From positions 4,443,492-4,507,491 of the forward strand of contig OY762279.1 of assembly GCA_963665455.1 (NCBI GenBank): a stretch of 64,000 nucleotides of DNA. Reading direction: 5' to 3'. Positions 9,038 through 62,079 of this stretch are shown in pieces. Under the pieces are notes generated by a model that did not search any database, was not told the origin of the DNA, and saw nothing but the letters and a program-made list of their open reading frames with translations. Within the stretch, counting starts at the first letter, position 1. Every line of letters begins with the position of its first letter. Source of the DNA: Pseudomonadales bacterium (GTDB taxonomy: Bacteria > Pseudomonadota > Gammaproteobacteria > Pseudomonadales > Azotimanducaceae). The position numbers were made by a program, and so were the translations under genes.

Positions 9038-10203
9038 GCGCTCTTTCCTCCTATTGCGGTGAGCAGCCGACGCGCCAGCCAACGGTGCGTCGCGATGGCG
9101 GGTCCTTCCTGGAGCGGGCTCATCAGCCCGGGCTCGGCCCGGCTCGACCGGACCGCACGCGAGATGCCCCGGTCGAATACCGTCGAGTCCTGGAAGTTGA
9201 TCCTGTTCGGCCCCTCGGGGTCCGCGTATTGCTCCGGCGTGTACTGCTCGGCAGCGAACTCGGGAGGCGCCACGCTGAACATGGCGACCCGGGTCCGGTC
9301 GACCGAGATGGGCCAGTTCGCCTGGATGCTGAGCATGGCAGGTGTCGGCATCAGGAAATTGGCGGGGGGCGTAATGGTCATATCGAACGCCGGACGTCTC
9401 CGGCCGACCATGCCGATCTCGTCCTTGTCGGGCTCGAAGCCGTACCACCTGGTGTAGTACTCGAGGTCGAGTCCGAGCACCTGCCGGGACCAGTACTCGC
9501 CGCACGTCGTTGGCTCGGTCATGGAGAGTGGCTCGTACACCCGCATCGCCTCCGGGTGTACTCCCGGGCCGTGGTAGACGTCTCCATTCTCCATCGCCTG
9601 CTTCCAGTTCGTGTTCCACACGTCGACAAAGACGTTGTTGCACACGAGGTCTTCCCGGTCGCAGAACCGGAAGTAAGGCGCCAGGCCTTCGAGTCGTGGC
9701 GCAAGTGCCGCGGCATCGTCGTCGAAGTTCACGAAGACGACTCCGTTCCAGACCTCCACCCGGAACTCGGGGAGCGCGATCCGCGTCTTGTCGAAGCCGG
9801 CGTTGTCCGTCATGAAGGGCGCGCCGGCGAGCTTGCCGTCGAGCCCGTAGGTCCACAAGTGGTACGGGCACTGGAAGCGCTTCACGTTGCCGCGCTCCCC
9901 GTCCTGCGTGACCGGAACGGCGCGGTGCCGGCAGACCGATGAGAGGGCCCGGACCTTCCGGTCCTCGCCCCGCACGAACACGATCGGCTCGCCGAGGATT
10001 TCCCACGCGAAGTAGTCGCCGGGTTGCTTCAGCCACGCCGTGTGCCCGACCGCGATCCACTCCTTCCTCCAGACGTGCTCGAGTTCCAGCTCGTACACCT
10101 CGGGCGAGTAGTAGTGGAAGAGGTCCGGCGTGCGCGGTTGATCGTCCGGAGTCGCGAGATAGGCTTCGAGCGACTCGCGGATCTGCTCAAGCCCCGATCT
10201 CAT
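9034..10203 (-). CDS. Rieske [2Fe-2S] ring-hydroxylating oxygenase alpha subunit
   Basis: CRHRAVPV...CPYHLWTY (CxH..CxxH) Rieske motif, followed by a catalytic domain with NWKQAMENGDVYHGPGVHP. Confidence 0.85.
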   Translation of the reverse strand: MRSGLEQIRESLEAYLATPDDQPRTPDLFHYYSPEVYELELEHVWRKEWIAVGHTAWLKQPGDYFAWEILGEPIVFVRGEDRKVRALSSVCRHRAVPVTQDGERGNVKRFQCPYHLWTYGLDGKLAGAPFMTDNAGFDKTRIALPEFRVEVWNGVVFVNFDDDAAALAPRLEGLAPYFRFCDREDLVCNNVFVDVWNTNWKQAMENGDVYHGPGVHPEAMRVYEPLSMTEPTTCGEYWSRQVLGLDLEYYTRWYGFEPDKDEIGMVGRRRPAFDMTITPPANFLMPTPAMLSIQANWPISVDRTRVAMFSVAPPEFAAEQYTPEQYADPEGPNRINFQDSTVFDRGISRAVRSSRAEPGLMSPLQEGPAIATHRWLARRLLTAIGGKSA

Positions 10204-10694: not shown

Positions 10695-11876
10695 TCAAGC
10701 GTGGTCGCCAACTCCCACCGCCGGCTCGCCCGGCGCCCACGTCTTCAGGACGGGAATAATCACGAACAGGCTCGCCAGCAACGCCAGGGAGCCGCCGTAG
10801 ATCATCGGGCTATAACTGCCCTGCACGAGCATGAAACTCGCCGCGGCCGGTCCCACGGCTCCACCCGCGTAAAAGAGGAGGTTGGCTGCGTTGACCAGCC
10901 TGCCCGAGGCATCCACCTTGGCGAACAGGCCGAAAAAGAACGTCAGCGCGACATTGGCGGCGACGTACGAAACCGCGGTCGCCGCCACGTAGGCGGCCGG
11001 GGTGTAGAGCAACGCCACGGCGTAGCCGAGCCCCATGATCGAAAAGCCGCCTATCAGGGCGGTGGCATCGTCCACCTTGCCGTCCATCCAGGCGGCCAGC
11101 GCACCCCCGAGCATGCCGCTGACAGCCCCCACGGACAGGACCAGACCGATACCCCAGGGGCCCAGCCCGGAATCGACCCCGATACGCTCCCAGTAGGCCC
11201 AGTACGCGCCGGCCACCGTGGACTGAACGAACAGGCCCAATGCCAGGAGCAGCACGGGCACCGTCAGCATGCCCAGTAGGCCCAGTTGCGCGGACGGGCC
11301 GTCCGCCTGTCGGCCGTATCGGGGAAACCACGCGAGGGCGATAACCAGCGCGACCAGCGAGACCGCCGCAATGCCGAGGAAGGGCCCTGTCATACCGGAG
11401 TACTCCAGCAAGGGGGGCATTCCCAGGAACCAGATGAGGCCCGACACGGACATGCTGGCCATGACGATCCCGTAGACACGGGTGGGCCGTGCCACCCTCG
11501 AGATGGCCGCATACACCGCACCCAGGATTACTCCCGCTGCGAGTCCGGTGACGACGCGAGTGACGATCATCAGCGTCGTGCTCTCGAGCCACGCGGCGAG
11601 AAAGTCGGAGAGCACGGCCACCAGGGCGGCCGAGAGCACTGTCGTTCGCAGATTCCAGCGATGTACGGTGATGGCCGCGACCCATAGCATCCCCATCGTT
11701 GCGAACAGTTGCAGCGATGAGATCTGTCCCGCCAGCTCCGGCGACCACCCGAAATCGTCGACGAAACCGCCGACTAGAAACGGCATGGCGTTCCAGTATG
11801 CGACTCCCGCCACGCTCAAGGCGACTAGGGTGACGATTGGCCGCAACTCGTTGACGCCGCTTTCTTCTGTCGTCAT
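10695..11876 (-). CDS. MFS transporter
   Basis: 393 aa, about 12 hydrophobic helices, same strand as the oxygenase cluster. Confidence 0.7.
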   Translation of the reverse strand: MTTEESGVNELRPIVTLVALSVAGVAYWNAMPFLVGGFVDDFGWSPELAGQISSLQLFATMGMLWVAAITVHRWNLRTTVLSAALVAVLSDFLAAWLESTTLMIVTRVVTGLAAGVILGAVYAAISRVARPTRVYGIVMASMSVSGLIWFLGMPPLLEYSGMTGPFLGIAAVSLVALVIALAWFPRYGRQADGPSAQLGLLGMLTVPVLLLALGLFVQSTVAGAYWAYWERIGVDSGLGPWGIGLVLSVGAVSGMLGGALAAWMDGKVDDATALIGGFSIMGLGYAVALLYTPAAYVAATAVSYVAANVALTFFFGLFAKVDASGRLVNAANLLFYAGGAVGPAAASFMLVQGSYSPMIYGGSLALLASLFVIIPVLKTWAPGEPAVGVGDHA

Positions 11877-13078: not shown

Positions 13079-15406
13079 CTAGAACACGTACCCTATCGTC
13101 ACCCCGGCGCTCCGTGGGTGCGTTATGTACATCGCGTCCGTTCCAAATGCCTCGGGGCCGGGGAAGACAGCGCGCACGAAGTTGATATCGTCCGAGATGT
13201 TCTCGACAAAGGCGCTCACGCTGAACCCGCTGGCCTGATTCTCGTAACGGAGCCGCGCCGAGTAACTCCAGAAGTCCCCTCCAAAGTCACCGGATCGTCC
13301 TGTGCTGTCGACCGGACGTGGGCCATGATAGAACGCCTCGAGTTGCGGCACGAGGACAGCCGAAGCGCCCAGGGCAAACTCGTACCGGATCGATCCGCTG
13401 AAGTCCCCTTCGTCCGAGTGCGCCAGTCGATTCCCGCTGTTGTCCTCCAGCGCCCCTCGGATGTACTCCTTGATCTCGTTATCGGAGTAGCCGTAGCTCA
13501 ACCTCAACTCGAGGTTCTCCGTCGGGCGTGCAACCGCCTCGATCTCTATACCCTGGAAGACCATTTCGGGAATGTTCGATCCCTGGAACGTATACTCGAG
13601 GGCGCCAAGGACTTGCCCGCCCTCGCTCGGCAAAAAATCGAAAAACTGGAAGTCCGTGTAGTCAAAGTAGTAGATGGATGCGTTCAGCCGCAAGCGTCCG
13701 TCGAACAACGAACTCTTGATGCCGGTCTCCCAGGCAAGGACCAACTCCGGATCCAGTTCCTTGTACGGCCCGAACATCGCGAACACGGCGCCTCTATAGC
13801 CCTGACTCACACTCCCATACAGCAGGACACCCTCCCGAAGCACATACTCCGCGGCAAGGCGCCAGGTCACTTCGCTCGAAGAGAGATCGCGGTCCGTCAG
13901 TTCCCCGAACCCGAAGTCGTCGTGGAGCGACAAATCACCTCCCGACAACTCCGACGTCTTCGGGAAAAAGGTAAAGGCGGCGTAGTCTCTCTGGGCTTCG
14001 ACTTCATCGCTGGTGTACCTTAGCGCATGAGTGGTGCTCAGCCTGTCGGTCCAGGCGTAGGTCGTATGCGCAAAGACGGCCCAGCTCGAGAGTTCCTGCT
14101 CCGCCAAGTACCGCTCGCCCCAACCGAAGTCTCCCGGCGGGAAGCTGATCGGATCGAACATCCGGTAGAAATCGGTATATTCAAACGCTGCGCCCCAATC
14201 CGCCGACTGATCGAGGAAATAGGCGCCGGCAATCCATTGGAACGGTGACTCGTCGGTGGAGGTCAACCGAAACTCCTGGGTGAACGTTCGGTGATCTCCG
14301 TACTCGTACCCGTGCCACATTGCCGCCGCCGTCCCGTCCCAGTCGGAGATGTCCGCGACTTCGAGATCCGTGTATCCAGTCACGGATGTGAGCGCCACGC
14401 TACCCAGATCCCATGTTATCGACAACGTGTATACGTTCGTATCGATCTCCGCCTGCTGCTCGTCGTTCGTGAAACTCAGATTGACCTTGCGGTGATCGCT
14501 CCCTGGACCTGGATTATGCAAGAGCGAGGAGTCTATTCCTGCCCATGGCGCAAAGGCTCCGTAGTAGTGCGGATCGGGCGCTCTGTTGACCAGCTGGGCC
14601 GGCGACGATTCGTCTCTTCCAAGTTGGGCCTTGAAGCGGACGCTGACCTCGTCGCTTGGATCCAGATCGAAGACCGCCCGGATGGCGCGCGTGTCTACCC
14701 AGGGGCCCTCTTCGCCCGTGTGGATGTTCTTCTGAAATCCGTCGTCCTCCTCCATGACGCCCGCGACGCGCACGCCGAAGCCGTCGGAGAGGGGCCCTCC
14801 AACGGCCACTTCGGCCCTGCGGCGGTTGAACTTGCCCAGGGTGACCCGTGCATAGCCATCTAGCTCGTCACCCGGCCCAGCGCTGATGAACTGCAGCGCG
14901 CCCGCGGTCGAGTTCCGGCCGAACAGCGTCCCCTGGGGCCCGCGGAGCACCTCCACGCGCTCGAGGTCGAACATGGCGAAGGAGTTGAACCAGTAGCTGT
15001 CCAGGATCGCTTCGTCCGCGTAGACCGCCGCGGTCTGGCCATCCATGAAGGAGTAGTTCGCGCTCGTGATCCCGCGAATCGTGATGACCTGGGCGCCCTG
15101 CTCGCCGTAACCCGATACGATGTTGAGGTTCGGCGCGACGTCGCCGAGCTGCTTCGACCCCTCGAGACCGTAGTCCCACAGGTCGTCGCCGCCGAACACG
15201 GTCATCGAGATCGGCACGTCCTGGGCACTCTGAGCGCGCCGCTCGGCGGTCACCAGGATTTCTTCTATCGGCGCGTCGGTGTCCGCTCCGCCGGACGTGT
15301 CGTCTTCCGCCAGCGCCAAGCCACCGGTCAGGACGACCGCCGCCAGTGCGGCACCAAGGCTTGCGAGGCCCGAGCCCCGCACGTTGTCCGTTCTCCGCTG
15401 TGACAT
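13079..15406 (-). CDS. TonB-dependent outer-membrane receptor
   Basis: Signal peptide, plug region EEILVTAERRAQSAQDVPISMTVF, C-terminal ...GVTIGYVF ending in an aromatic residue. ATG 15406 after GAGGGGAAGGA. Confidence 0.85.
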   Translation of the reverse strand: MSQRRTDNVRGSGLASLGAALAAVVLTGGLALAEDDTSGGADTDAPIEEILVTAERRAQSAQDVPISMTVFGGDDLWDYGLEGSKQLGDVAPNLNIVSGYGEQGAQVITIRGITSANYSFMDGQTAAVYADEAILDSYWFNSFAMFDLERVEVLRGPQGTLFGRNSTAGALQFISAGPGDELDGYARVTLGKFNRRRAEVAVGGPLSDGFGVRVAGVMEEDDGFQKNIHTGEEGPWVDTRAIRAVFDLDPSDEVSVRFKAQLGRDESSPAQLVNRAPDPHYYGAFAPWAGIDSSLLHNPGPGSDHRKVNLSFTNDEQQAEIDTNVYTLSITWDLGSVALTSVTGYTDLEVADISDWDGTAAAMWHGYEYGDHRTFTQEFRLTSTDESPFQWIAGAYFLDQSADWGAAFEYTDFYRMFDPISFPPGDFGWGERYLAEQELSSWAVFAHTTYAWTDRLSTTHALRYTSDEVEAQRDYAAFTFFPKTSELSGGDLSLHDDFGFGELTDRDLSSSEVTWRLAAEYVLREGVLLYGSVSQGYRGAVFAMFGPYKELDPELVLAWETGIKSSLFDGRLRLNASIYYFDYTDFQFFDFLPSEGGQVLGALEYTFQGSNIPEMVFQGIEIEAVARPTENLELRLSYGYSDNEIKEYIRGALEDNSGNRLAHSDEGDFSGSIRYEFALGASAVLVPQLEAFYHGPRPVDSTGRSGDFGGDFWSYSARLRYENQASGFSVSAFVENISDDINFVRAVFPGPEAFGTDAMYITHPRSAGVTIGYVF

Positions 15407-19607: not shown

Positions 19608-21692
19608 CTAGTACCTGACACTCACCTCGACGCCAAAGGTCCGTGGGACAGGGCGCGTCGCCGCGAAGCTCGAGGCCACTCCCCGGGCCTTCAGGGCGCC
19701 GTCTTCATCCGTGAGGTTCGTGCTGAAGAGGTAGACGCCCAGCCGGTCGTTTTCGATGCCGAGCCGCGCATCAACCATCGTCATCGCATCGCTCGACAGG
19801 TTCGCGAGGCTGGTGGTGTCCTCGCGCTCGCCGGCATGTCGAACCGCCAGCCGCGCCATGCCGTTGAAGCCGTCCAGCGAGCCCCCAAGCGGCCAGTCAT
19901 AGCGCGCGTACGCGTTGGCCATGAATTCGGCGACCTCGGGCAGGGGATCGCCCTTCATCAGGTCGGTGTTCGGCACGTCCGCTTTCTGCTCGCTGTCCAC
20001 CAGGCTCATCCCCGCGTGCAGCGTCAGGTTGCCCGCGATGTAGGTCGTGGAGAGATCGAGCCCCGAGATATCCGCGCCCTCCGTGTTGACCTGCAGGACC
20101 AGCCCTCCCAGTCCAACCACCGGCACGGTCGTCGACAAGTCCTCCCAATCGCTGTAGTAGACCGCGGCTTCGATGGTCCAGTTGCCTTCCCCAAGGACCG
20201 CCTTGACACCCAGTTCATACGTCAGGATCGAATCGGCATCCAGGACCAGATCGTAGGGAACCGGGAGTCCAAGGGTTTCGATGAGAAAAATGGCGTCCGT
20301 GAAATTCGGCACCGCGCTGCGGGCGCCCTTCGCCACACTGGCATAGAACATCGCGGAGTCATCGGGTTGGTAGCTGAGGCTGAAACGCGGCAGGAGATAA
20401 TCAGCATCGATTTCCGCCTCGATCAACGTCTGGGTATCGAAGTTGTGGAGGTCCTCCTGGGAGAAGCGCAACCCAAGGGCAGCGGCCCAGGCATCCGACA
20501 GGCTGTACTCGACTTCTCCGAAAACCGCTCGGACTTCGTTGTTCTGGAGGGTCACGGTATCGACGATCGGGACGCCGCCCGCAACGAACTTCAGGCCGAA
20601 GGGAACCCCAGCGTCTCTCGAATAGACGCCGGCCGTGTAGGTAAAGCGATCAGCCGACCCGGAATAACGCAGCTCATGGGTGTCCATCTCTACGCCGATG
20701 TTCGCGAAAATGACGAAGCCGGCAAAGGCCGGAATCGTGAGCAGGTGATCGTATTCGGTCCTCCCGTAGGCATACAGCAGTTCGCCCGGCCCCAGACTCG
20801 CAGTGGCCGTCAGCGTGTATCGGTCGTACTCCGTTTCGCCGTATGCCCCGCCTGGGGGGATCACGCCGTCGTCGGTCGCCCGGTCTTCCGCATCCCAACC
20901 GCGTTGCTCGTTCAGCCAGGCCGAAGCAACGATCTCGATGTCGTCGGTGGGCGTGTACGCCAGCTTGGCGCGAACGCCGCTGGCGTCGCGGCTGTTGGCG
21001 TCGTCCTCGTTCTCGTTGTCGAGCCAGCCGCCGCGGTCCTCGTCGAAGCCGACCACGCGCAGCGCCAGTTGGTCTTCGACCAGGGGAATGTTGATCATCC
21101 CGCGGGCACCCCGGGTGTCGCCGCCGTCAAAACTCCCGTAGAAGGCGTCTACGTGCATTCCGAAGGCCGAGGGATCGGGATCGCGCGTCACGATGTGCAC
21201 CGTTCCCCCCATGGAACCATCGCCGAATATGGTGCCCTGCGGACCCCGCAACACCTCGATGCGCTCGATGTCGAAAGCGCGCACATCCGGGTTGATCGGC
21301 AACACCAGACCGACAAACGGGACATCGTCCACGTAGTAGCCCACCGTCTGTGAGCCCGAGGTCGTGGAGGTCCCGCGGATCGTGATCCGCTGCGCGCCGC
21401 CGGCCGTATCGTCGGAGAGATTCACTCCCGGAGCGAGCTCGAGGACGTCGTAGATGCTCCTCGCGCTGTTGTCGCGCATGGTGGTCTCGTCAAGGACGGT
21501 GAGCGCGATGGGGACATCCATCGCGTTCTCCGAGCGTTTTCGCGCGGTGACAATGACCTCCTCGATAACGCGTGTCTCTTCCGCACTCGCGTCACCTGCT
21601 TCGGCCGCTTCGCCCGCGGCGCCGAGACCGGCCAATATCGTCGCGACGACAACGACACCGAAGCGGTTGCCTGGTCGTGCTTTCTGACTCAT
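19608..21692 (-). CDS. TonB-dependent outer-membrane receptor
   Basis: Signal peptide, plug EEVIVTARKRSENAMDVPIALTVL, C-terminal ...VEVSVRY. Confidence 0.85.
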   Translation of the reverse strand: MSQKARPGNRFGVVVVATILAGLGAAGEAAEAGDASAEETRVIEEVIVTARKRSENAMDVPIALTVLDETTMRDNSARSIYDVLELAPGVNLSDDTAGGAQRITIRGTSTTSGSQTVGYYVDDVPFVGLVLPINPDVRAFDIERIEVLRGPQGTIFGDGSMGGTVHIVTRDPDPSAFGMHVDAFYGSFDGGDTRGARGMINIPLVEDQLALRVVGFDEDRGGWLDNENEDDANSRDASGVRAKLAYTPTDDIEIVASAWLNEQRGWDAEDRATDDGVIPPGGAYGETEYDRYTLTATASLGPGELLYAYGRTEYDHLLTIPAFAGFVIFANIGVEMDTHELRYSGSADRFTYTAGVYSRDAGVPFGLKFVAGGVPIVDTVTLQNNEVRAVFGEVEYSLSDAWAAALGLRFSQEDLHNFDTQTLIEAEIDADYLLPRFSLSYQPDDSAMFYASVAKGARSAVPNFTDAIFLIETLGLPVPYDLVLDADSILTYELGVKAVLGEGNWTIEAAVYYSDWEDLSTTVPVVGLGGLVLQVNTEGADISGLDLSTTYIAGNLTLHAGMSLVDSEQKADVPNTDLMKGDPLPEVAEFMANAYARYDWPLGGSLDGFNGMARLAVRHAGEREDTTSLANLSSDAMTMVDARLGIENDRLGVYLFSTNLTDEDGALKARGVASSFAATRPVPRTFGVEVSVRY

Positions 21693-41840: not shown

Positions 41841-42905
41841 ATGGCCGAACTGCTCGGGAGCGACTTCACCTCGAAGTTCAAGAAGCGTGTGGCGTCGGCC
41901 CGGGAAGTTTGGATTTGTTCGGCATGGATGACCGAAAGCCAGGCTCTGAACGCCTTGGTCAGCCGGAAGCGAGAATGTGCCGTGCGGGTCATCGTCGGCA
42001 TTCGCGGGAACGCAACATCGCCCGACAGCCTGTACAGGCTCGCGCAGGAGTTCGGGTGGGAGAGGGTCAGGATCGCCGATCCACCGGACCGTCTGTTCCA
42101 CGCCAAGCTCTTCCTGTTCCACTACCCCCGACGTCCGACCGTCGCGTGGATTGGCAGCGCCAACTTCACGGGCCACGGAATGGAGGTGAACAGAGAACTG
42201 ATGCTTGAGACCAGCCACAGCAGCGCCGTGACGGCTATGCAGAAGTGGTTCGACAAAGAGTGGGAGGATTGCTGCCCCGATACGGAGGCGGTGGCCGCAG
42301 CGTATCGGCAGCGGTGGACGCCGCCCAACGAATTCAACGGCGACTGGGGCGGCGAGCCAGCACCAGTCGGGCCCCGCCCCCGAACCGGGCCAGACAGGCG
42401 CAGCTTGGTCGACTTGCGGGAAAAGCCGGACAACGGCAAGTGCTACAAATTCAAGTACTTCGGAGAAGACCGCTGGGCGAAATCGCTCGCCGAGATTGCA
42501 CGCAACGTGCTCGTCGCCTTCGGGGACGCTGATCCAGATTTCCTGACAAGGTTCGCGACGAAGGATGACGAGGCGCGCACGGCTCTCCCGAGCGCCACGA
42601 GGCGTTACCTGAGCAAAAGACGCGGGGAGCTGGGCACACAACCGCCAAAGGGTGGGCTACCAAAGCCACATGGGCAATGGCGGATGGCGCAACGCTTGGA
42701 GGAGCACCTCTTTTTTCAGGGTAAATCGCGTCCCGGCATACTAAAGATGGCTTGCGAGGCCATGGACGTAACCTACGGAGAGGGCGACGCAGGGCCCATC
42801 GACTTTCAAAGTACCCAGAGAAGCAAGCCACCCGGATTCGCGGAAGGCGAGGTCATCCTAGTGAAGATCGGAACCAGATCGGAGCGTCACCGGCTAGACT
42901 CTTAG
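41841..42905 (+). CDS. phospholipase D/Nuc-family (single HKD) nuclease with an unassigned C-terminal domain
   Basis: ATG 41841 inside track ORF 41544..42905. FHAKLFLFHYPRRPTVAWIGSANFTGHG is the HxK(x)4D...GSxN motif (42099-42164). The last ~190 aa are unrecognised. Confidence 0.7.
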   Translation: MAELLGSDFTSKFKKRVASAREVWICSAWMTESQALNALVSRKRECAVRVIVGIRGNATSPDSLYRLAQEFGWERVRIADPPDRLFHAKLFLFHYPRRPTVAWIGSANFTGHGMEVNRELMLETSHSSAVTAMQKWFDKEWEDCCPDTEAVAAAYRQRWTPPNEFNGDWGGEPAPVGPRPRTGPDRRSLVDLREKPDNGKCYKFKYFGEDRWAKSLAEIARNVLVAFGDADPDFLTRFATKDDEARTALPSATRRYLSKRRGELGTQPPKGGLPKPHGQWRMAQRLEEHLFFQGKSRPGILKMACEAMDVTYGEGDAGPIDFQSTQRSKPPGFAEGEVILVKIGTRSERHRLDS

Positions 42906-43025
42906 GCGCGGTCCGTTCCTTGCTGCCTAGTGCTAGTGGACGTCCTTGACGCGGCTCTCATTGATGCACAGTCCCACCGAGTCCAGTCCTGACGACGAGC
43001 CCTTTGGACAGTAAGGCTGATCGGG

Positions 43026-45934: not shown

Positions 45935-46081
45935 GAGGTTCGCGCCGTCCGCGGAAACCGTCTCGATCCGTCTCGGCGATGACTTCGCCTGTGCGCGTTT
46001 CTTCGTATGCGAGGGGTTCCCCCTCGCGCTCCCCGGCTGACGGCTCTTGGCCACGTTGTGATACCCGTCCGGTCAGGTTAC

Positions 46082-49690: not shown

Positions 49691-50317
49691 TCAGTCCGGG
49701 ATGGGGATGTCGTTCACCTTCATCGGCACGTCGTAGCCGCGCTGCACGGCGGGCCGCCCGGCGATCTCGATGTACCAGCGCTTGAGGTTCGGGAAGTCCG
49801 CCCAGTCGATGCCCTGCCACTCGTAGCGTGAGATCCAGGGCCAGGTCGCCATGTCGGCGATGGAGTATTCGTCCGCGAGATACGGCCGACCCGCCAGGCG
49901 CCTGTCCAGCACGCCGTAGAGGCGGTTCGCCTCGGCCGCGTAGCGCTCCTCCGCGTAGGGTGCCTTGCCAACGTTGAAGCGCAGGAAGTGGTGCGCCTGG
50001 CCGAGCATCGGGCCGACGCCACCCATCTGGAGCATGAGCCATTCCAGGGTGGTCCAGCGGTCCGGTCCGCCGAAGCGTCCCGTCTTGTCGACCAAGTAGA
50101 GGAGGATGGCGCCCGACTCCATCATCGACCGTCCCGTCTCGCGATCAACGATGGCGGGAATCTTGTTGTTCGGGCTGATGGCGAGGAAGGACGGCTCGAA
50201 CTGCTCGTCCTTGCCGATGTGTACGGGATGCACCTCGTAGTCGAGCCCGAACTCCTCCAGGGCGATCGAGATCTTGCGTCCATTGGGGGTGGGGAACGTG
50301 TAGAGGTCGATGGTCAC
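49691..50317 (-). CDS. glutathione S-transferase (Nu-class, YfcG/YghU-like)
   Basis: TPNGRKISIALEE...ISPNNKIPAIVD...ESGAILLYL. Confidence 0.85.
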   Translation of the reverse strand: MTIDLYTFPTPNGRKISIALEEFGLDYEVHPVHIGKDEQFEPSFLAISPNNKIPAIVDRETGRSMMESGAILLYLVDKTGRFGGPDRWTTLEWLMLQMGGVGPMLGQAHHFLRFNVGKAPYAEERYAAEANRLYGVLDRRLAGRPYLADEYSIADMATWPWISRYEWQGIDWADFPNLKRWYIEIAGRPAVQRGYDVPMKVNDIPIPD

Positions 50318-51120
50318 TACGAGTCCTCGGCGGGAGCGTCGGCTTCGGACTCCGCGGGTGCCGGCGGGAGCTCGGGTGGCTTCGTGAGCCGGTAGAGCAC
50401 GCGGTCGGTTTGCCCGCGGATCGCCGGGTCGAACACCATCGTCGTGCGGTCGTCCAAGGGATTGCGCAGCAGGGCCGACGACTCGACGATGAAGCCCGAT
50501 GCCTCGAGGATCGGCACGGCCCGCACGACGTCGAGACGATGCAAACCGTTGTTGTCCTGGTCGGCGTCGCCGTAGTGGTCGACAACGCCGAGCACACCGC
50601 CCGGCTTGAGCAGTGCCTTGACAACCTGCAGGAAACCCGCCGCCGCGTCGTCACCCCCCGTGCCCTCTCCCAGACCGTTGTGTACGTCGTGGAAATTGAG
50701 CGCGGTGAACGCGGCGTCGAGCGACCCGGCCTCGATGCCCAAGTCGGCCAATTCGGTGTCCACGCGCTCGACGTTGCCCAGCCGCCCGTCCGCGAGCCGC
50801 GCCGTCATCGCCTTGTCGTACATGCCGTCGGCGAACTGCAGGAAGATCGGGAAGTTCTGGGCGTAGACCTTGCCTGCCGGCCCCACGGCGAGCGACAGCA
50901 CCTCGGTGTAGTAGCCACCGGACGCCATCAAGTCCATGACGGTCATGCCGGCACCGATGCCGAGGTATTCGATCACCTCCGCCGGCTTGCGGCCCGCGTC
51001 CCGCGCCCGGTCTTCCTCCGTCCGGTCCCCCGATGCCAGGGCGGCCGCGAGGTCGGCGGAAGCAGCCGAACCTGCCAACACCATGCCGAGCACCACGCTC
51101 CAGACCACGTTCCGGCTCAT
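50317..51120 (-). CDS. class I SAM-dependent methyltransferase with signal peptide
   Basis: VMDLMASGGYYTEVLS (motif I-like) and LKPGGVLGVVDH; cleavable-looking leader. Confidence 0.7.
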   Translation of the reverse strand: MSRNVVWSVVLGMVLAGSAASADLAAALASGDRTEEDRARDAGRKPAEVIEYLGIGAGMTVMDLMASGGYYTEVLSLAVGPAGKVYAQNFPIFLQFADGMYDKAMTARLADGRLGNVERVDTELADLGIEAGSLDAAFTALNFHDVHNGLGEGTGGDDAAAGFLQVVKALLKPGGVLGVVDHYGDADQDNNGLHRLDVVRAVPILEASGFIVESSALLRNPLDDRTTMVFDPAIRGQTDRVLYRLTKPPELPPAPAESEADAPAEDS

Positions 51121-51197
51121 AGGTTCCTCCGTCTTGTCCCCAAGTCGAGCCGCAACCCTTGCACAACGCGGGGCGATGTCAAGCCGCTACGCCGCTA

Positions 51198-51341
51198 GGG
51201 AAGGTCTGAACAAGACCTTTCCTAGTGCGGCACAGGGATGTGCCGCCAGATTCGATGGCGTAAGCCATTGAATCTGTGGAGCAAGCCGAAACCGCGCTTT
51301 TGGCTTGCGACCTGAACAAGTCCATGGACGGACTTGTTCAG
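51198..51341 (+). ncRNA. candidate structured RNA or tandem hairpin array (unclassified)
   Basis: Five back-to-back hairpins. H1 51198-51222 (9 bp). H2 51227-51246 (8 bp, GGGA loop). H3 51247-51276 (13 bp, GUAA loop). H4 51281-51308 (11 bp). H5 51312-51341 (12 bp perfect). All non-Watson-Crick pairs are G.T on the plus strand. Confidence 0.3.
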
Positions 51342-51355
51342 AGGTTCCCCTAGTG

Positions 51356-51460
51356 CCCGCAAACCGTCGCCTATGGGGCCGCGCCGTAGGACGGCGCGAG
51401 CGCGTAGGTCGGAGGGGCTGGGCCGCGAGCGGAGCCGTAGGCGACGGTTGCGGGGCGCTA
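51356..51460. repeat. REP-like long imperfect hairpin containing a 60-nt repeat unit
   Basis: Arms 51356-51376 and 51435-51454 pair (20 bp, one bulge, one G.T). 51401-51460 is the reverse complement of 61206-61265 with 2 mismatches. Confidence 0.5.
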
Positions 51461-52309
51461 TGGGGCGCTCGTATCGAACACGTCGTCCAGCGTGCGCGCG
51501 TCGAGCACGTTCTCGGCCCATGCCTCCAAGTCGGTTGCCGACGCCTGATGGAGCCGGTCCGCGACCGCCGCGGAAAGGCGACCGAATCGCCGCCGCAAGA
51601 GGCGCTCCAGCACGGTCCGTTCACCGTCGACGCGGCCCTCGCGGATACCCTCGTCGCGTCCCACCCGCATGCCCTCGTCGCGCCCTTGCCGAATGCCCTC
51701 GTCCCGAGCCCTCTGGATCATTCCCGCCATGGTCTTGCTCTCCTCCGGATACCGCCGCCGGTAGGTTTCCTGCTCATTCTCCGTGAGCGCGGCGTAGATG
51801 TCGGTGAACTGCACGTACTTCGCGAGCTTGGCGGCGTCCGGCTCCAGCGCCCGCAGGCCGTGCGCCGCGTGCGCGAACACGTCGACCCGGTCCATGCCGG
51901 GCGGCCGGCGCATGTTCGGCAGGTTGACCAGCGCCACCGGGTTGTCGCTGTCCCGCCATTCCCCGGCGTCCATCGCGTCGAGCCGGCAAGAGAGGTGGTG
52001 GAACGTCAGGTAGTCGCCGCGTTCGGTGCCGAGCGCGAGCGTCTCGGGGTCCGGACCGTCGCGCAGGAAGATGGACACGGGCGCCACGCGGTTCGTCTTG
52101 AACAGCTCGGCGAGGTCGAGGCAATAGTGCGCCAGCCGGTGCCGCGAGAAGCGCCCGCCGTCGGTTTCCTCCTCCAGGGCGAAGAGCCCTCAGCCGGGGA
52201 GCGCGAGGGGCCTGCCCCTCGCATGAGAGAGCACCGTTTCGCGGCGGCCGTCGGCCCAATCGACGCGCAGGGGCGTGTCGAGCTCGTGGTACGCCAGCAT
52301 TGACGGCAT
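51458..52309 (-). pseudogene. Rpn-family (YhgA-like PD-(D/E)XK) recombination-promoting nuclease/putative transposase with DUF4351-like C-terminus, interrupted by an in-frame TGA
   Basis: Track ORFs 52190..52453 and 51458..52087 are in the same frame, separated by TGA 52190-52192: ...TPLRVDWADGRRETVLSHARGRPLALPG*GLFALEEETDGGRFSRHRLAHYCLDL... The C-terminus ERLLRRRFGRLSAAVADRLHQASATDLEAWAENVL is DUF4351-like. Confidence 0.5.
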
Positions 52310-61147: not shown

Positions 61148-61205
61148 CAGAAACTCCTTTCGCACCATGCTTCCGGGAAACACCGGGCACCTCGCAGGCC
61201 AAAGC

Positions 61206-61265
61206 TAGCGCCCCGCAACCGTCGCCTACGGCTCCGCTCGCGGCCCAGTCCCTCCGGCCTACGCG
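61206..61265. repeat. second copy of the 60-nt REP-like repeat
   Basis: TAGCGCCCCGCAACCGTCGCCTACGGCTCCGCTCGCGGCCCAGTCCCTCCGGCCTACGCG matches 58 of 60 nt of the reverse complement of 51401-51460. Confidence 0.5.
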
Positions 61266-61558
61266 CCCGCGGCGCTGACCACAAGAAGCGTCGTCACGGC
61301 GTCGAAGCCTCGGACACGCTCCGAATAGACGGCCGTGCGCGCCAGTTGCCCAAGTTCCCGGTCGAGCTCCTGTTTGAGCCTCTTCCGCTCTCTGCCACGC
61401 CGAACAAGCGTGTCGTAGGGCTCGGCCAACGCGTACGCCGGAACCCGTAGCTCGATATCACCCCGCTCGGCAAGCTTCAATATCTCGTCGCAGCTATCCG
61501 CCCATCGCTGCAACAAGGCGAGTTCCAGAACGAAGTTCGACTCGACGTAGACCTTCAC
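61259..61558 (-). CDS. hypothetical protein, N-terminal half of a PIN-like fold, apparently truncated
   Basis: KVYVESNFVLELALL...ELRVPAYALAEPYDTL resembles the first two PIN acidic blocks, and the C-terminal blocks are absent. The last codons and the stop lie inside the 60-nt repeat. GTGA overlap with the upstream gene. Confidence 0.35.
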   Translation of the reverse strand: MKVYVESNFVLELALLQRWADSCDEILKLAERGDIELRVPAYALAEPYDTLVRRGRERKRLKQELDRELGQLARTAVYSERVRGFDAVTTLLVVSAAGA

Positions 61559-62040
61559 AGTGCCACTTCATGCTCGACGTGTCCATCGACCACGGCAGCA
61601 CGAAAGCCCGATTCATCTAACCATTCCTGGCCTGCGGCAGCCTGCTCGGGACGACGCCATGTCAGGTCGCTAAACCAACCGGAGACCAGCATCTCGAAGG
61701 CCGGCCCCGTCACGTTGGCAGGGTCGATTCCCGCCCTCTCGAAATAGGGCGCGAACGTCGGCGCACAGTCGGCCTCGTACGTCGGCGGCAGCTCCACGGG
61801 CTCATTGCCCACGTCCTTCCAAACGTAGAGGCGATCCGGAGTGACCATCAAGAAGAAGTCCCATCGGCCCACCAACCCATGCGCCAACATGTTCCGCCGG
61901 GTACGCGCTGCCCACTCGCCGGAGGTATCCCTCAGATTCTTGACTTCGACGACGGCCACCAGTTGACCCTTCCCGTCGTACAGGCCGAGATCCACTCGAA
62001 GCGGCATTTCGTCGATCACCAATCGTTGTCGGTCGGTCAT
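61555..62040 (-). CDS. hypothetical PD-(D/E)XK-like (HsdR N-terminal-domain-like) protein
   Basis: RVDLGLYDGKGQLVAVVEVKN gives a D...E-x-K arrangement; 161 aa. Confidence 0.4.
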   Translation of the reverse strand: MTDRQRLVIDEMPLRVDLGLYDGKGQLVAVVEVKNLRDTSGEWAARTRRNMLAHGLVGRWDFFLMVTPDRLYVWKDVGNEPVELPPTYEADCAPTFAPYFERAGIDPANVTGPAFEMLVSGWFSDLTWRRPEQAAAGQEWLDESGFRAAVVDGHVEHEVAL

Positions 62041-62079
62041 TGTCCGGCGCTCGCCGGGTGGCGGTCAACGTGCGCCCGC

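Follow-up and report, generated by a model that had tools for sequence, protein, structure and literature searches.

Six hairpins packed behind a degenerate Rpn-like gene: probably a mosaic of dispersed, mobile-type palindromic repeats

We analysed a stretch of 64,000 nucleotides (the window; contig OY762279.1, assembly GCA_963665455.1, positions 4,443,492 to 4,507,491) from an uncultured, probably sponge-associated gammaproteobacterium, in which an array of six hairpins (H1 to H6) fills the gap between two genes. Both neighbours are encoded on the minus strand, as an earlier note on this DNA had stated. The open reading frame (ORF) at 50317-51120 encodes a secreted protein resembling S-adenosylmethionine (SAM) methyltransferases; it has no Pfam match, and its homologues are named class I SAM-dependent methyltransferase. 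The ORF at 51458-52087, whose stop lies at 51458, encodes DUF4351, the C-terminal domain of Rpn-like proteins. Reading the sequence of 51195-51460 confirmed the six packed hairpins that the note had described, and folding with RNAfold agreed: the plus strand of 51190-51460 folds with -172.4 kcal/mol compared to -113.8 +/- 5.0 for dinucleotide shuffles (z -11.7, 0 of 200 as good), and the minus strand with -145.3 kcal/mol (z -9.0, equalled by no shuffle). With DNA folding parameters both strands fold well, and the advantage of the plus strand is smaller than with RNA parameters. The four non-canonical pairs singled out before are indeed G/T on the plus strand, the loops GGGA (H2) and GTAA (H3) are GNRA on that strand only, and the 12-mer CTGAACAAGNCC is found at 51206, at 51312 and, inverted, at 51330, with no other occurrence in the window. 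The motif TTCC..CTAGTGC, said to follow each direct copy of the 12-mer, does so after H1; it does not follow the copy at 51312 and stands instead after the inverted (3′) arm of H5. Rfam, suggested as a check for a known structured RNA class, gave 0 matches in the window at the gathering score (release 15), and at E<=10 the segment 50900-51800 yielded only chance-level matches of 10-16 bits, far under the cut-offs. In the same segment no sigma-70-like promoter was predicted, and intrinsic terminators (a G+C-rich hairpin followed by a U tract) numbered 0 on either strand. Two readings of the hairpins were rejected: transcription terminators, as the U tract is missing, and, by sequence reading, integron attC sites, as the arms of H6 (GCAAACC/GGTTGCG) are unlike RYYYAAC/GTTRRRY.

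The region is made of three modules rather than one structure: M1 (H1), M2 (H2-H5) and M3 (H6). Their coordinates, with those of the other features, are listed in Table 1. CTAG marks three of the four module borders and the fourth, at the Rpn stop, has CTA only; the tetranucleotide is scarce in the window (31 observed, approximately 198 expected from base composition). Among the available relatives the ENA contig L114 (5.36 Mb) is nearest: its methyltransferase has 88% identity, and along 15 kb of synteny its DNA has 91.4%. In the orientation of the window, its gap between the same two genes reads CTAG-H1-CTAG-H1'-CTAG-[H2 H3 H4 H5]-CTAG-[H2 H3 H4 H5]-CTA, followed by the Rpn stop. As [H2 H3 H4 H5] recurs there in tandem, H2-H5 form one unit of about 125 nt, M2, and the two copies are direct repeats. 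M1 is also duplicated in tandem in L114 (9871-9896 and 9845-9869), as a separate 23-nt unit. The M2 of the window is 99% identical to the L114 copy at 9587-9714, while the genomes are 91% identical overall, and 92-94% identical to the copy at 9714-9842. M3 shows a presence/absence polymorphism, as it is missing from L114: the empty site GGTTCCCTATGGGG corresponds in the window to GGTTCCCCTAG, 104 nt and CTATGGGG, with CTA/TA on both sides. In four more distant relatives, L115-L118, whose methyltransferases are 80-81% identical, there is neither an array nor a DUF4351 gene; in L117 the methyltransferase and an AA_synth gene are divergent neighbours with 76 nt between them.

Table 1. Coordinates of the array, its modules and hairpins, related copies and adjoining features (positions refer to the window unless a contig is named)
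Feature	Position	Strand	Remarks
M1 = H1	51195..51225	+	CTAG-GGAAGGTCTGAACAAGACCTTTC-CTAG; 23-nt mini-palindrome between two CTAG
M2 (H2-H5)	51226..51349	+	~125 nt; read and folded; copies in L114, L124, L120, L121
M3 unit	51375..51458	+	GGGGCCGCGCCGTAGGACGGCGCG...GGGCCGCGAGCGGAGCCGTAGGCGACGGTTGCGGGGCGC
Left terminal inverted repeat of M1+M2	51199..51214	+	GGAAGGTCTGAACAAG; pairs with right repeat 51333-51349
Right terminal inverted repeat of M1+M2	51333..51349	+	CTTGTTCAGAGGTTCCC; reverse complement GGGAACCTCTGAACAAG
CTAG junction M2/M3, filled insertion site	51350..51353	.	From the L114 empty-site comparison
Left arm of H6	51354..51374	+	Inverted partial copy of last ~21 nt of M3 unit
CTA at 3′ border of M3	51458..51460	-	TAG stop of DUF4351 gene
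H1	51195-51225	+	13 bp counting CTAG ends, one G.T
H2	51227-51246	+	GCGGCACA-GGGA-TGTGCCGC
H3	51247-51276	+	13 bp, GTAA loop
H4	51281-51308	+	11 bp
H5	51312-51341	+	12 bp, perfect
H6	~51351-51376 paired with 51435-51459	+	Long stem
M1 copies	L120 1050-1079; L121 866-895; L124 14393-14423 and 20569-20599		
Second M3 copy in the window	61206..61274	-	69 nt, 94%; without left arm; overlaps end of truncated PIN-like ORF
M3 family members	L126 18479-18566; L124 1112-1174 and 14551-14616; L125 five units; ~14 copies in MAG loci labelled Spirochaetia		
Rpn-like (DUF4351) gene remnant	51458..52291	-	Without ~55 N-terminal residues; interrupted by 45-nt repeat
Conserved block upstream of methyltransferase gene	51148..51190	-	TTGACA-17-AGGGTT; kept in L114 and L117 (L117 without array)

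M1 and M2 together (M1+M2) span about 155 nt and M3 about 84-105 nt, and neither holds a credible ORF. The terminal repeats of M1+M2 agree at 17 of 19 positions including TA (TAGGGAAGGTCTGAACAAG compared to the reverse complement of CTTGTTCAGAGGTTCCCTA; the reverse complement of the right end is also given as GGAACCTCTGAACAAG). H1 and H5 arise where each of these terminal repeats folds back onto a complementary copy beside it, and H2-H4 are unrelated internal palindromes. Both the second M3 copy of the window and the copy in L126 lack the left arm, which shows that the H6 stem of the window is the M3 unit with its last ~21 nt present once more in inverted form. Every module has a G directly after TA at its start and a C directly before TA at its end, and hence abutting modules recreate CTAG, and a stop codon whose TA receives an insertion regains its TAG, whichever the strand. 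Elsewhere in the window, a non-coding stretch of lower G+C content (42700-43000) carries four CTAG in 80 nt (42858, 42894, 42927, 42933) and has no Rfam match.

The modules are dispersed. The copy numbers given here are sample estimates from 169 kb of the lineage and from loci of metagenomes and metagenome-assembled genomes (MAGs), with taxonomic labels as in the records. M1+M2 was found in five gene contexts (the window, L120, L121 and two in L124), and at 3 places in the 169 kb. L120 and L121, two contigs of the marine-sponge metagenome LXNJ, came from scanning metagenomes for the invariant core of H3; in the former the element follows an SDR gene and faces a convergent gene, and in the latter it lies between two genes that are both on the strand opposite to it. 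Three further regions of the L114 genome were obtained through paralogs of the DUF4351 gene. L124 holds one M1+M2 at 14393-14548 (+), whose M2 part (14420-14548) is 99% identical to that of the window and which is followed by a piece of M3, and a second at 20444-20599 (-; 94%), whose M2 part (20445-20572) is 92-94% identical, as well as a solo H5-type palindrome with a 17-bp stem (11352-11398). As regards orientation, three contexts have M1+M2 sense to an upstream gene, and the remaining two have it antisense to the genes on both sides. The H3 core had 0 matches in viral contigs, blastn of 51150-51500 found no match in a plasmid collection, and a protein search with the translated repeat, for spurious ORFs over other copies, gave no candidate. 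Right after M1+M2 in L120 (1205-1300) there are three more hairpins of another family, in which the stems differ and the loop with its closing pair (C-TGAC-G) is shared: CGCGACC-TGAC-GGTCGCG, CCCATCC-TGAC-GGATGGG and GGAAGCTTCGC-TGAC-GCGAAACTTCC.

M3 belongs to a more abundant family, which a hidden Markov model placed at 7 sites in the 169 kb. The L126 copy is clean and bounded by CTAG and TTGG, and in L125 tandem units of ~108 nt lie downstream of a DUF4351 gene (10976-11305). A further M3-family unit lies upstream of that gene (9603-9749), and several CTAGCTAG doublets are seen at the L125 borders. The second M3 copy of the window is part of an insertion of ~900 nt (61190-62050) relative to L114 and L117, between a luciferase-like and a P450 gene, where L114 has 42 nt; the insertion also contains a 161-aa ORF (61555-62040, -) and a truncated PIN-like ORF (61259-61558, -). 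A genome scan with the 18-mer TAGGCGACGGTTKSSGGG over 596 Gb, for which ~140 chance matches are expected, returned at least 113, mostly chance, and the real ones among the matches listed were in MAG loci labelled Spirochaetia alone. M3-like units occur in at least 15 loci of such large high-GC MAGs, 87-97% identical over 30-49 nt, and are preceded there by a different hairpin. In at least seven of the MAGs (64-73% G+C) an element of ~105 nt is highly conserved, a hairpin GGAGTCTGTCGG...CCGACAGACTCC followed by GACGCGAAAGGTGGGGATGGGCCGAAAGCGGAGCCGTAGGCGACGGTTTCGGGGCGCTA, of which the 3′ half is the M3 family (loci L006, L007, L011, L012, L019, L034, L045, L057, L070, L083, L085, L095, L106, L107 and L111). 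That the family is common to a gammaproteobacterium and to MAGs labelled Spirochaetia may reflect the passage of a tiny repeat across phyla in a single host-associated community.

We consider it quite probable that the array is a mosaic of dispersed, mobile-type palindromic repeats. [quoted passage not shown] The earlier note had named similar copies in both orientations, as in a cluster of repetitive extragenic palindromes (REPs) or BIMEs, as the finding that would speak against its own proposals; such copies do exist in kind, their count being that of a sample only.

To get clues whether the hairpins themselves are kept, we compared the seven copies of M1+M2, a set of related sequences. Standard pairs make up 99% of the pair cells, and five pairs, located in four of the five helices, are changed on both sides; one pair of H4 occurs in four types (C-G, A-U, G-C and G-U). 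The covariation score of 0.119 is reached by 0 of 500 shuffles (0.059 +/- 0.009) and collapses when the partners are slid by one to three columns. This covariation is supportive of the stems and is not proof. All one-sided departures in the stems of M1+M2 are G.U on the plus strand and none is A.C, about five independent events compared to none, and the G.U pairs of H3 and H4 are common to all copies. The stems of the M3 family covary between variants as well (CCGAAA/TTTCGG, CCGCGA/TTGCGG, CCAAAA/TTTTGG). Compensatory changes together with wobbles confined to one strand indicate that the hairpins are maintained, so that the lack of covariation which the earlier note had held out as a counter-argument was not what we found.

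Maintained hairpins raise the question of whether M2, or the whole array, is a functional structured RNA of the plus strand, a small RNA or a cis-regulatory element, sitting in or travelling on the repeat. Its fold is very stable, and in each of four individual M1+M2 copies (window, L114 array, L120, L121) the plus strand is more stable by 10-14 kcal/mol; the GNRA loops on that strand only, the compensatory changes in four of five helices and an M2 that is 99% identical between genomes differing by far more all agree with an RNA. It is nevertheless quite improbable, given that no Rfam family matched even at E<=10, that no sigma-70-like promoter or intrinsic terminator lies in or beside the array, that the upstream sequence is not conserved among contexts, that three contexts are sense and two antisense to their neighbours, and that the copy number varies in close relatives while slightly more distant ones have no array. 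The plus-strand structured RNA of unknown class that the earlier note had proposed finds no support as a locus-specific RNA gene, given the dispersal of the modules in unrelated contexts and their variability between genomes that are 91% identical, besides the missing Rfam match, promoter and terminator.

The ends and flanks of the modules hint at how they may have moved. At 14 of 16 positions the left end of M1+M2, GGAAGGTCTGAACAAG, is identical to the end of insertion sequence IS5 of E. coli K-12, GGAAGGTGCGAACAAG (from NC_000913). Members of the IS5 group insert at YTAR, usually CTAG or CTAA, with a 4-bp duplication, and IS630 also prefers CTAG and duplicates TA. An IS5-type or IS630-type insertion would fit the CTAG flanks, and CTAG or CTA flanks M1+M2 on both sides in the window, in L114 and in the L124 copy at 14393. 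Module ends also coincide with stop codons. In the window, in L124 (1112-1114), in L125 (10976-10978) and in five MAG loci, a convergent gene has its in-frame stop in the 3′ CTA of an M3-family unit; in L120 the 5′ TAG of M1+M2 is the TAG stop of the SDR gene, on which the element begins, and in L114 the border of M2 is the Rpn stop.

In the mechanism that we infer, enzyme and order of insertions included, a transposase acting in trans would insert the modules at CTAG/TA. For M1+M2 an IS5-family DDE enzyme seems likeliest, judged from the terminal repeats and the CTAG (YTAR-type) flanks, and for this mechanism specifically our confidence is tentative, somewhat short of even. Each insertion would recreate CTAG on both sides and so provide fresh targets beside the older modules, which would explain the back-to-back packing, while ends that restore TAG on either strand would explain why modules frequently sit exactly on the stop codons of neighbouring genes. 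The long stem comes from the extra inverted copy that M3 here has of its own end, and the element would keep its hairpins on a single strand, either to propagate itself or as a transcript.

Several observations weigh against this interpretation. The ends of the M3 unit are unrelated and form no terminal inverted repeats, the added inverted arm being present in the window copy alone, and M3 is therefore not a classical MITE. A covariance model of M2 found no further, more divergent copy in the 64-kb window or in 23 loci, so that the copy number of M1+M2 looks modest. When ~1 Mb was searched for a partner insertion sequence, with 3 mismatches to the terminal repeat allowed, only the modules and chance matches in coding sequences came up; with no transposase gene between matching ends, it is the similarity of the ends and the flanks that links the modules to IS5. 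Duplications are not clean in three M1+M2 copies (L120, L121 and L124 20444), where the left flank is YTAG and the right one YTGG. At these right flanks and that of the L126 M3 copy (L120 1208-1211, L121 1032-1035, L124 20441-20444, L126 18567-18570) the first base is the same as on the left (TTAG/TTGG, CTAG/CTGG), and simple target duplication does not explain such flanks in four independent copies. Finally, double-strand cut-and-paste gives no reason for strand-specific wobbles or covarying internal hairpins, a hint that the elements are read in single-stranded form, as DNA (by an HUH-type enzyme or in replication) or as RNA.

The main rival for how the modules move takes up this last point. 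The modules could be REP- or REPIN-like elements that an HUH tyrosine transposase, either a REP-associated tyrosine transposase (RAYT) or an IS200/IS605-type enzyme, moves in the form of single-stranded DNA. The enzyme would recognise hairpins on one strand and insert on the 3′ side of a short target, CTA for instance, and what looks like a duplication would be the target together with an element end that resembles it. Such a route agrees with stems that covary and wobble on the plus strand with no A.C mismatch, with the single orientation of all modules in the array, and with an M3 that has no terminal inverted repeats but has hairpins near its ends, carries CGTAGG three times, is frequently located between convergent genes and is rather dense, with 7 places in 169 kb. 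REP palindromes are known to persist through complementary mutations (PMC2817692). We nonetheless give it a minor share of the probability: H1-H5 lack a GT(A/G)G head, the GTAG of M3 (within CGTAGG) lies in loops or stems and not 5′ of a palindrome, M1+M2 carries IS5-like terminal inverted repeats, and no RAYT or IS200 gene was seen, although no genome was searched for one.

The array adjoins an Rpn-like gene, and its modules could belong to this DUF4351, PD-(D/E)XK nuclease gene unit, either as its end or as binding or cleavage sites of the nuclease. Array and gene occur together in the window and in L114, where the orthologue likewise lacks ~55 N-terminal residues, and are both missing from L115-L118. 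The source contig carries at least 8 paralogs of this multi-copy family and the L114 contig at least 7; in five of the seven paralogs examined a TAG stop is directly followed by a module, and the L125 paralog has M3 units on both sides. However, TGA is the stop of the paralogs in L123 and L126 and no module follows it, and different paralogs are followed by different modules. M1+M2 in L120, L121 and L124 (14393 and 20444) and M3 in L126, L124 (1112) and at 61206 of the window do not adjoin DUF4351 genes, and no DUF4351 homologue was found within the 8 kb examined around M3-like copies at 15 MAG loci. The gene-unit explanation is thus very doubtful, and we read the adjacency as shared residence in spots that tolerate insertion. 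The other proposal of the earlier note, a decayed mobile element linked to the Rpn gene, accordingly holds in part: the repeats are like mobile elements, and they are not the end of an Rpn element, as M1+M2 also lies beside SDR and other genes.

A more daring version would have the Rpn-like nucleases as trans-acting partners of the CTAG-bounded modules, as RAYTs are for REPs; cutting at or near CTAG would make points of insertion or recombination, and modules would accumulate at the stops of the nucleases' own genes and elsewhere. We regard it as a long shot. If true, the Rpn family, long annotated as 'putative transposase', would gain a cognate DNA substrate.

DUF4351 genes also host a palindromic repeat of ~45 nt, ATGCGAGGGG-nnn-CCCCTCGCGCTCCCCGGCTGAGGGCTCTT, found in the window (52174-52218 and, inverted, 46008-46055), in L124 (10011-10054 and 4255-4318), in L126 (10011-10054) and in L125 (9794-9826). 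In the DUF4351 gene of the window it lies near residue 80 and brings in a TGA stop, and it is missing from the L114 orthologue; in L124 and L126 it lies inside the gene after residue 4, and it is intergenic as well. In appearance it is similar to Pseudomonas REPs, and in behaviour to the palindromic elements found within genes of Rickettsia. The DUF4351 paralogs in L123, L124, L125 and L126 share a non-coding leader ~150 nt upstream (~9850-10000; ..CCCATTGTGGTGCTTCCTTGTGCGCCATCGCCCCACGCATC..GGGCGAATTT..CACAGGA..TTCAGCGATAGCCGATTCC..), which indicates that the duplicated unit is larger than the ORF.

However it arose, the array may now serve its host: placed between the Rpn-like gene and the methyltransferase promoter, it could be a barrier or insulator made of 3′ hairpins that acts through mRNA stabilisation or transcription attenuation. 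It lies exactly between the Rpn stop and the conserved block upstream of the methyltransferase gene, a putative promoter just past which the array starts, its hairpins are stable on either strand, and such functions have been described for REPs and BIMEs (PMC3184786). Still, the gene upstream is a truncated and interrupted pseudogene, relatives do without the array, there is no terminator with a U tract, and the better-folding strand is antisense to both neighbours, which leaves a host role unlikely.

A mosaic of mobile-type repeats would explain a striking structure without a new RNA class. It would add at least three undescribed families of small repeats (M1+M2, M3 and the 45-nt palindrome) in uncultured, probably sponge-associated bacteria, and a simple rule, TA-G...C-TA ends leading to CTAG targets and TAG stops, could account for both the arrays and their positions at stop codons. 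The wobble bias towards one strand and the covarying internal hairpins make these elements a usable case for testing how such repeats are recognised. In annotation, they shorten or lengthen ORF calls and interrupt genes, the Rpn-like gene here being an example.

Among known systems, IS5 of E. coli K-12 is similar in its ends, GGAAGGTGCGAACAAGTCC and GGAAGGTGCGAATAAG (NC_000913), which match GGAAGGTCTGAACAAGACC and GGAACCTCTGAACAAGTCC of M1+M2; the similarity is limited to 14-16 of 19 bases, and M1+M2, unlike IS5, has no transposase gene between its ends. Our literature search found no paper that pairs IS5-family MITEs with CTAG. A REP consists of a GT(A/G)G head followed by an imperfect palindrome of 20-40 nt, which is kept by complementary mutations (PMC2817692). 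The BIMEs that REP units form in E. coli, Pseudomonas and Stenotrophomonas share much with the array: they are clusters of short G+C-rich extragenic palindromes in intergenic regions, often between convergent genes or right after stops, they are mosaics of several motif types, their copy number varies between strains and their palindromes persist through complementary mutations (PMC2817692, PMC3184786). In contrast, the units here have no GT(A/G)G head before the palindrome (H1-H5 in particular), five or six different hairpins in one orientation take the place of regularly spaced alternating REPs, and the borders are marked by CTAG. REPs are expected in >100 copies per genome, whereas our sample has M3 at 7 places and M1+M2 at 3 in 169 kb. 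For lack of the head and of the alternating arrangement, the modules do not qualify as REPs. Bacterial MITEs, such as Correia of Neisseria, ERIC of enterobacteria, Nezha of cyanobacteria and RUP of pneumococcus, resemble M1+M2 in being non-coding, 100-160 nt long and bounded by terminal inverted repeats with TA-containing flanks, in their very stable predicted folds, in empty and filled sites between close relatives and in ends resembling those of a full insertion sequence (PMC3184786). They differ in that M1+M2 forms no single long hairpin, each terminal repeat folding on its own neighbour (H1, H5) with three unrelated internal hairpins that covary, and in the imperfect YTAG/YTGG flanks and the M3 ends found here. 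M1+M2 and M3 are nevertheless both shorter than ~400 bp and have no transposase gene, M1+M2, not M3, has terminal inverted repeats, and, as is typical of MITEs, copies are dispersed (five contexts of M1+M2) and an M3 site is filled in the window and empty in L114.

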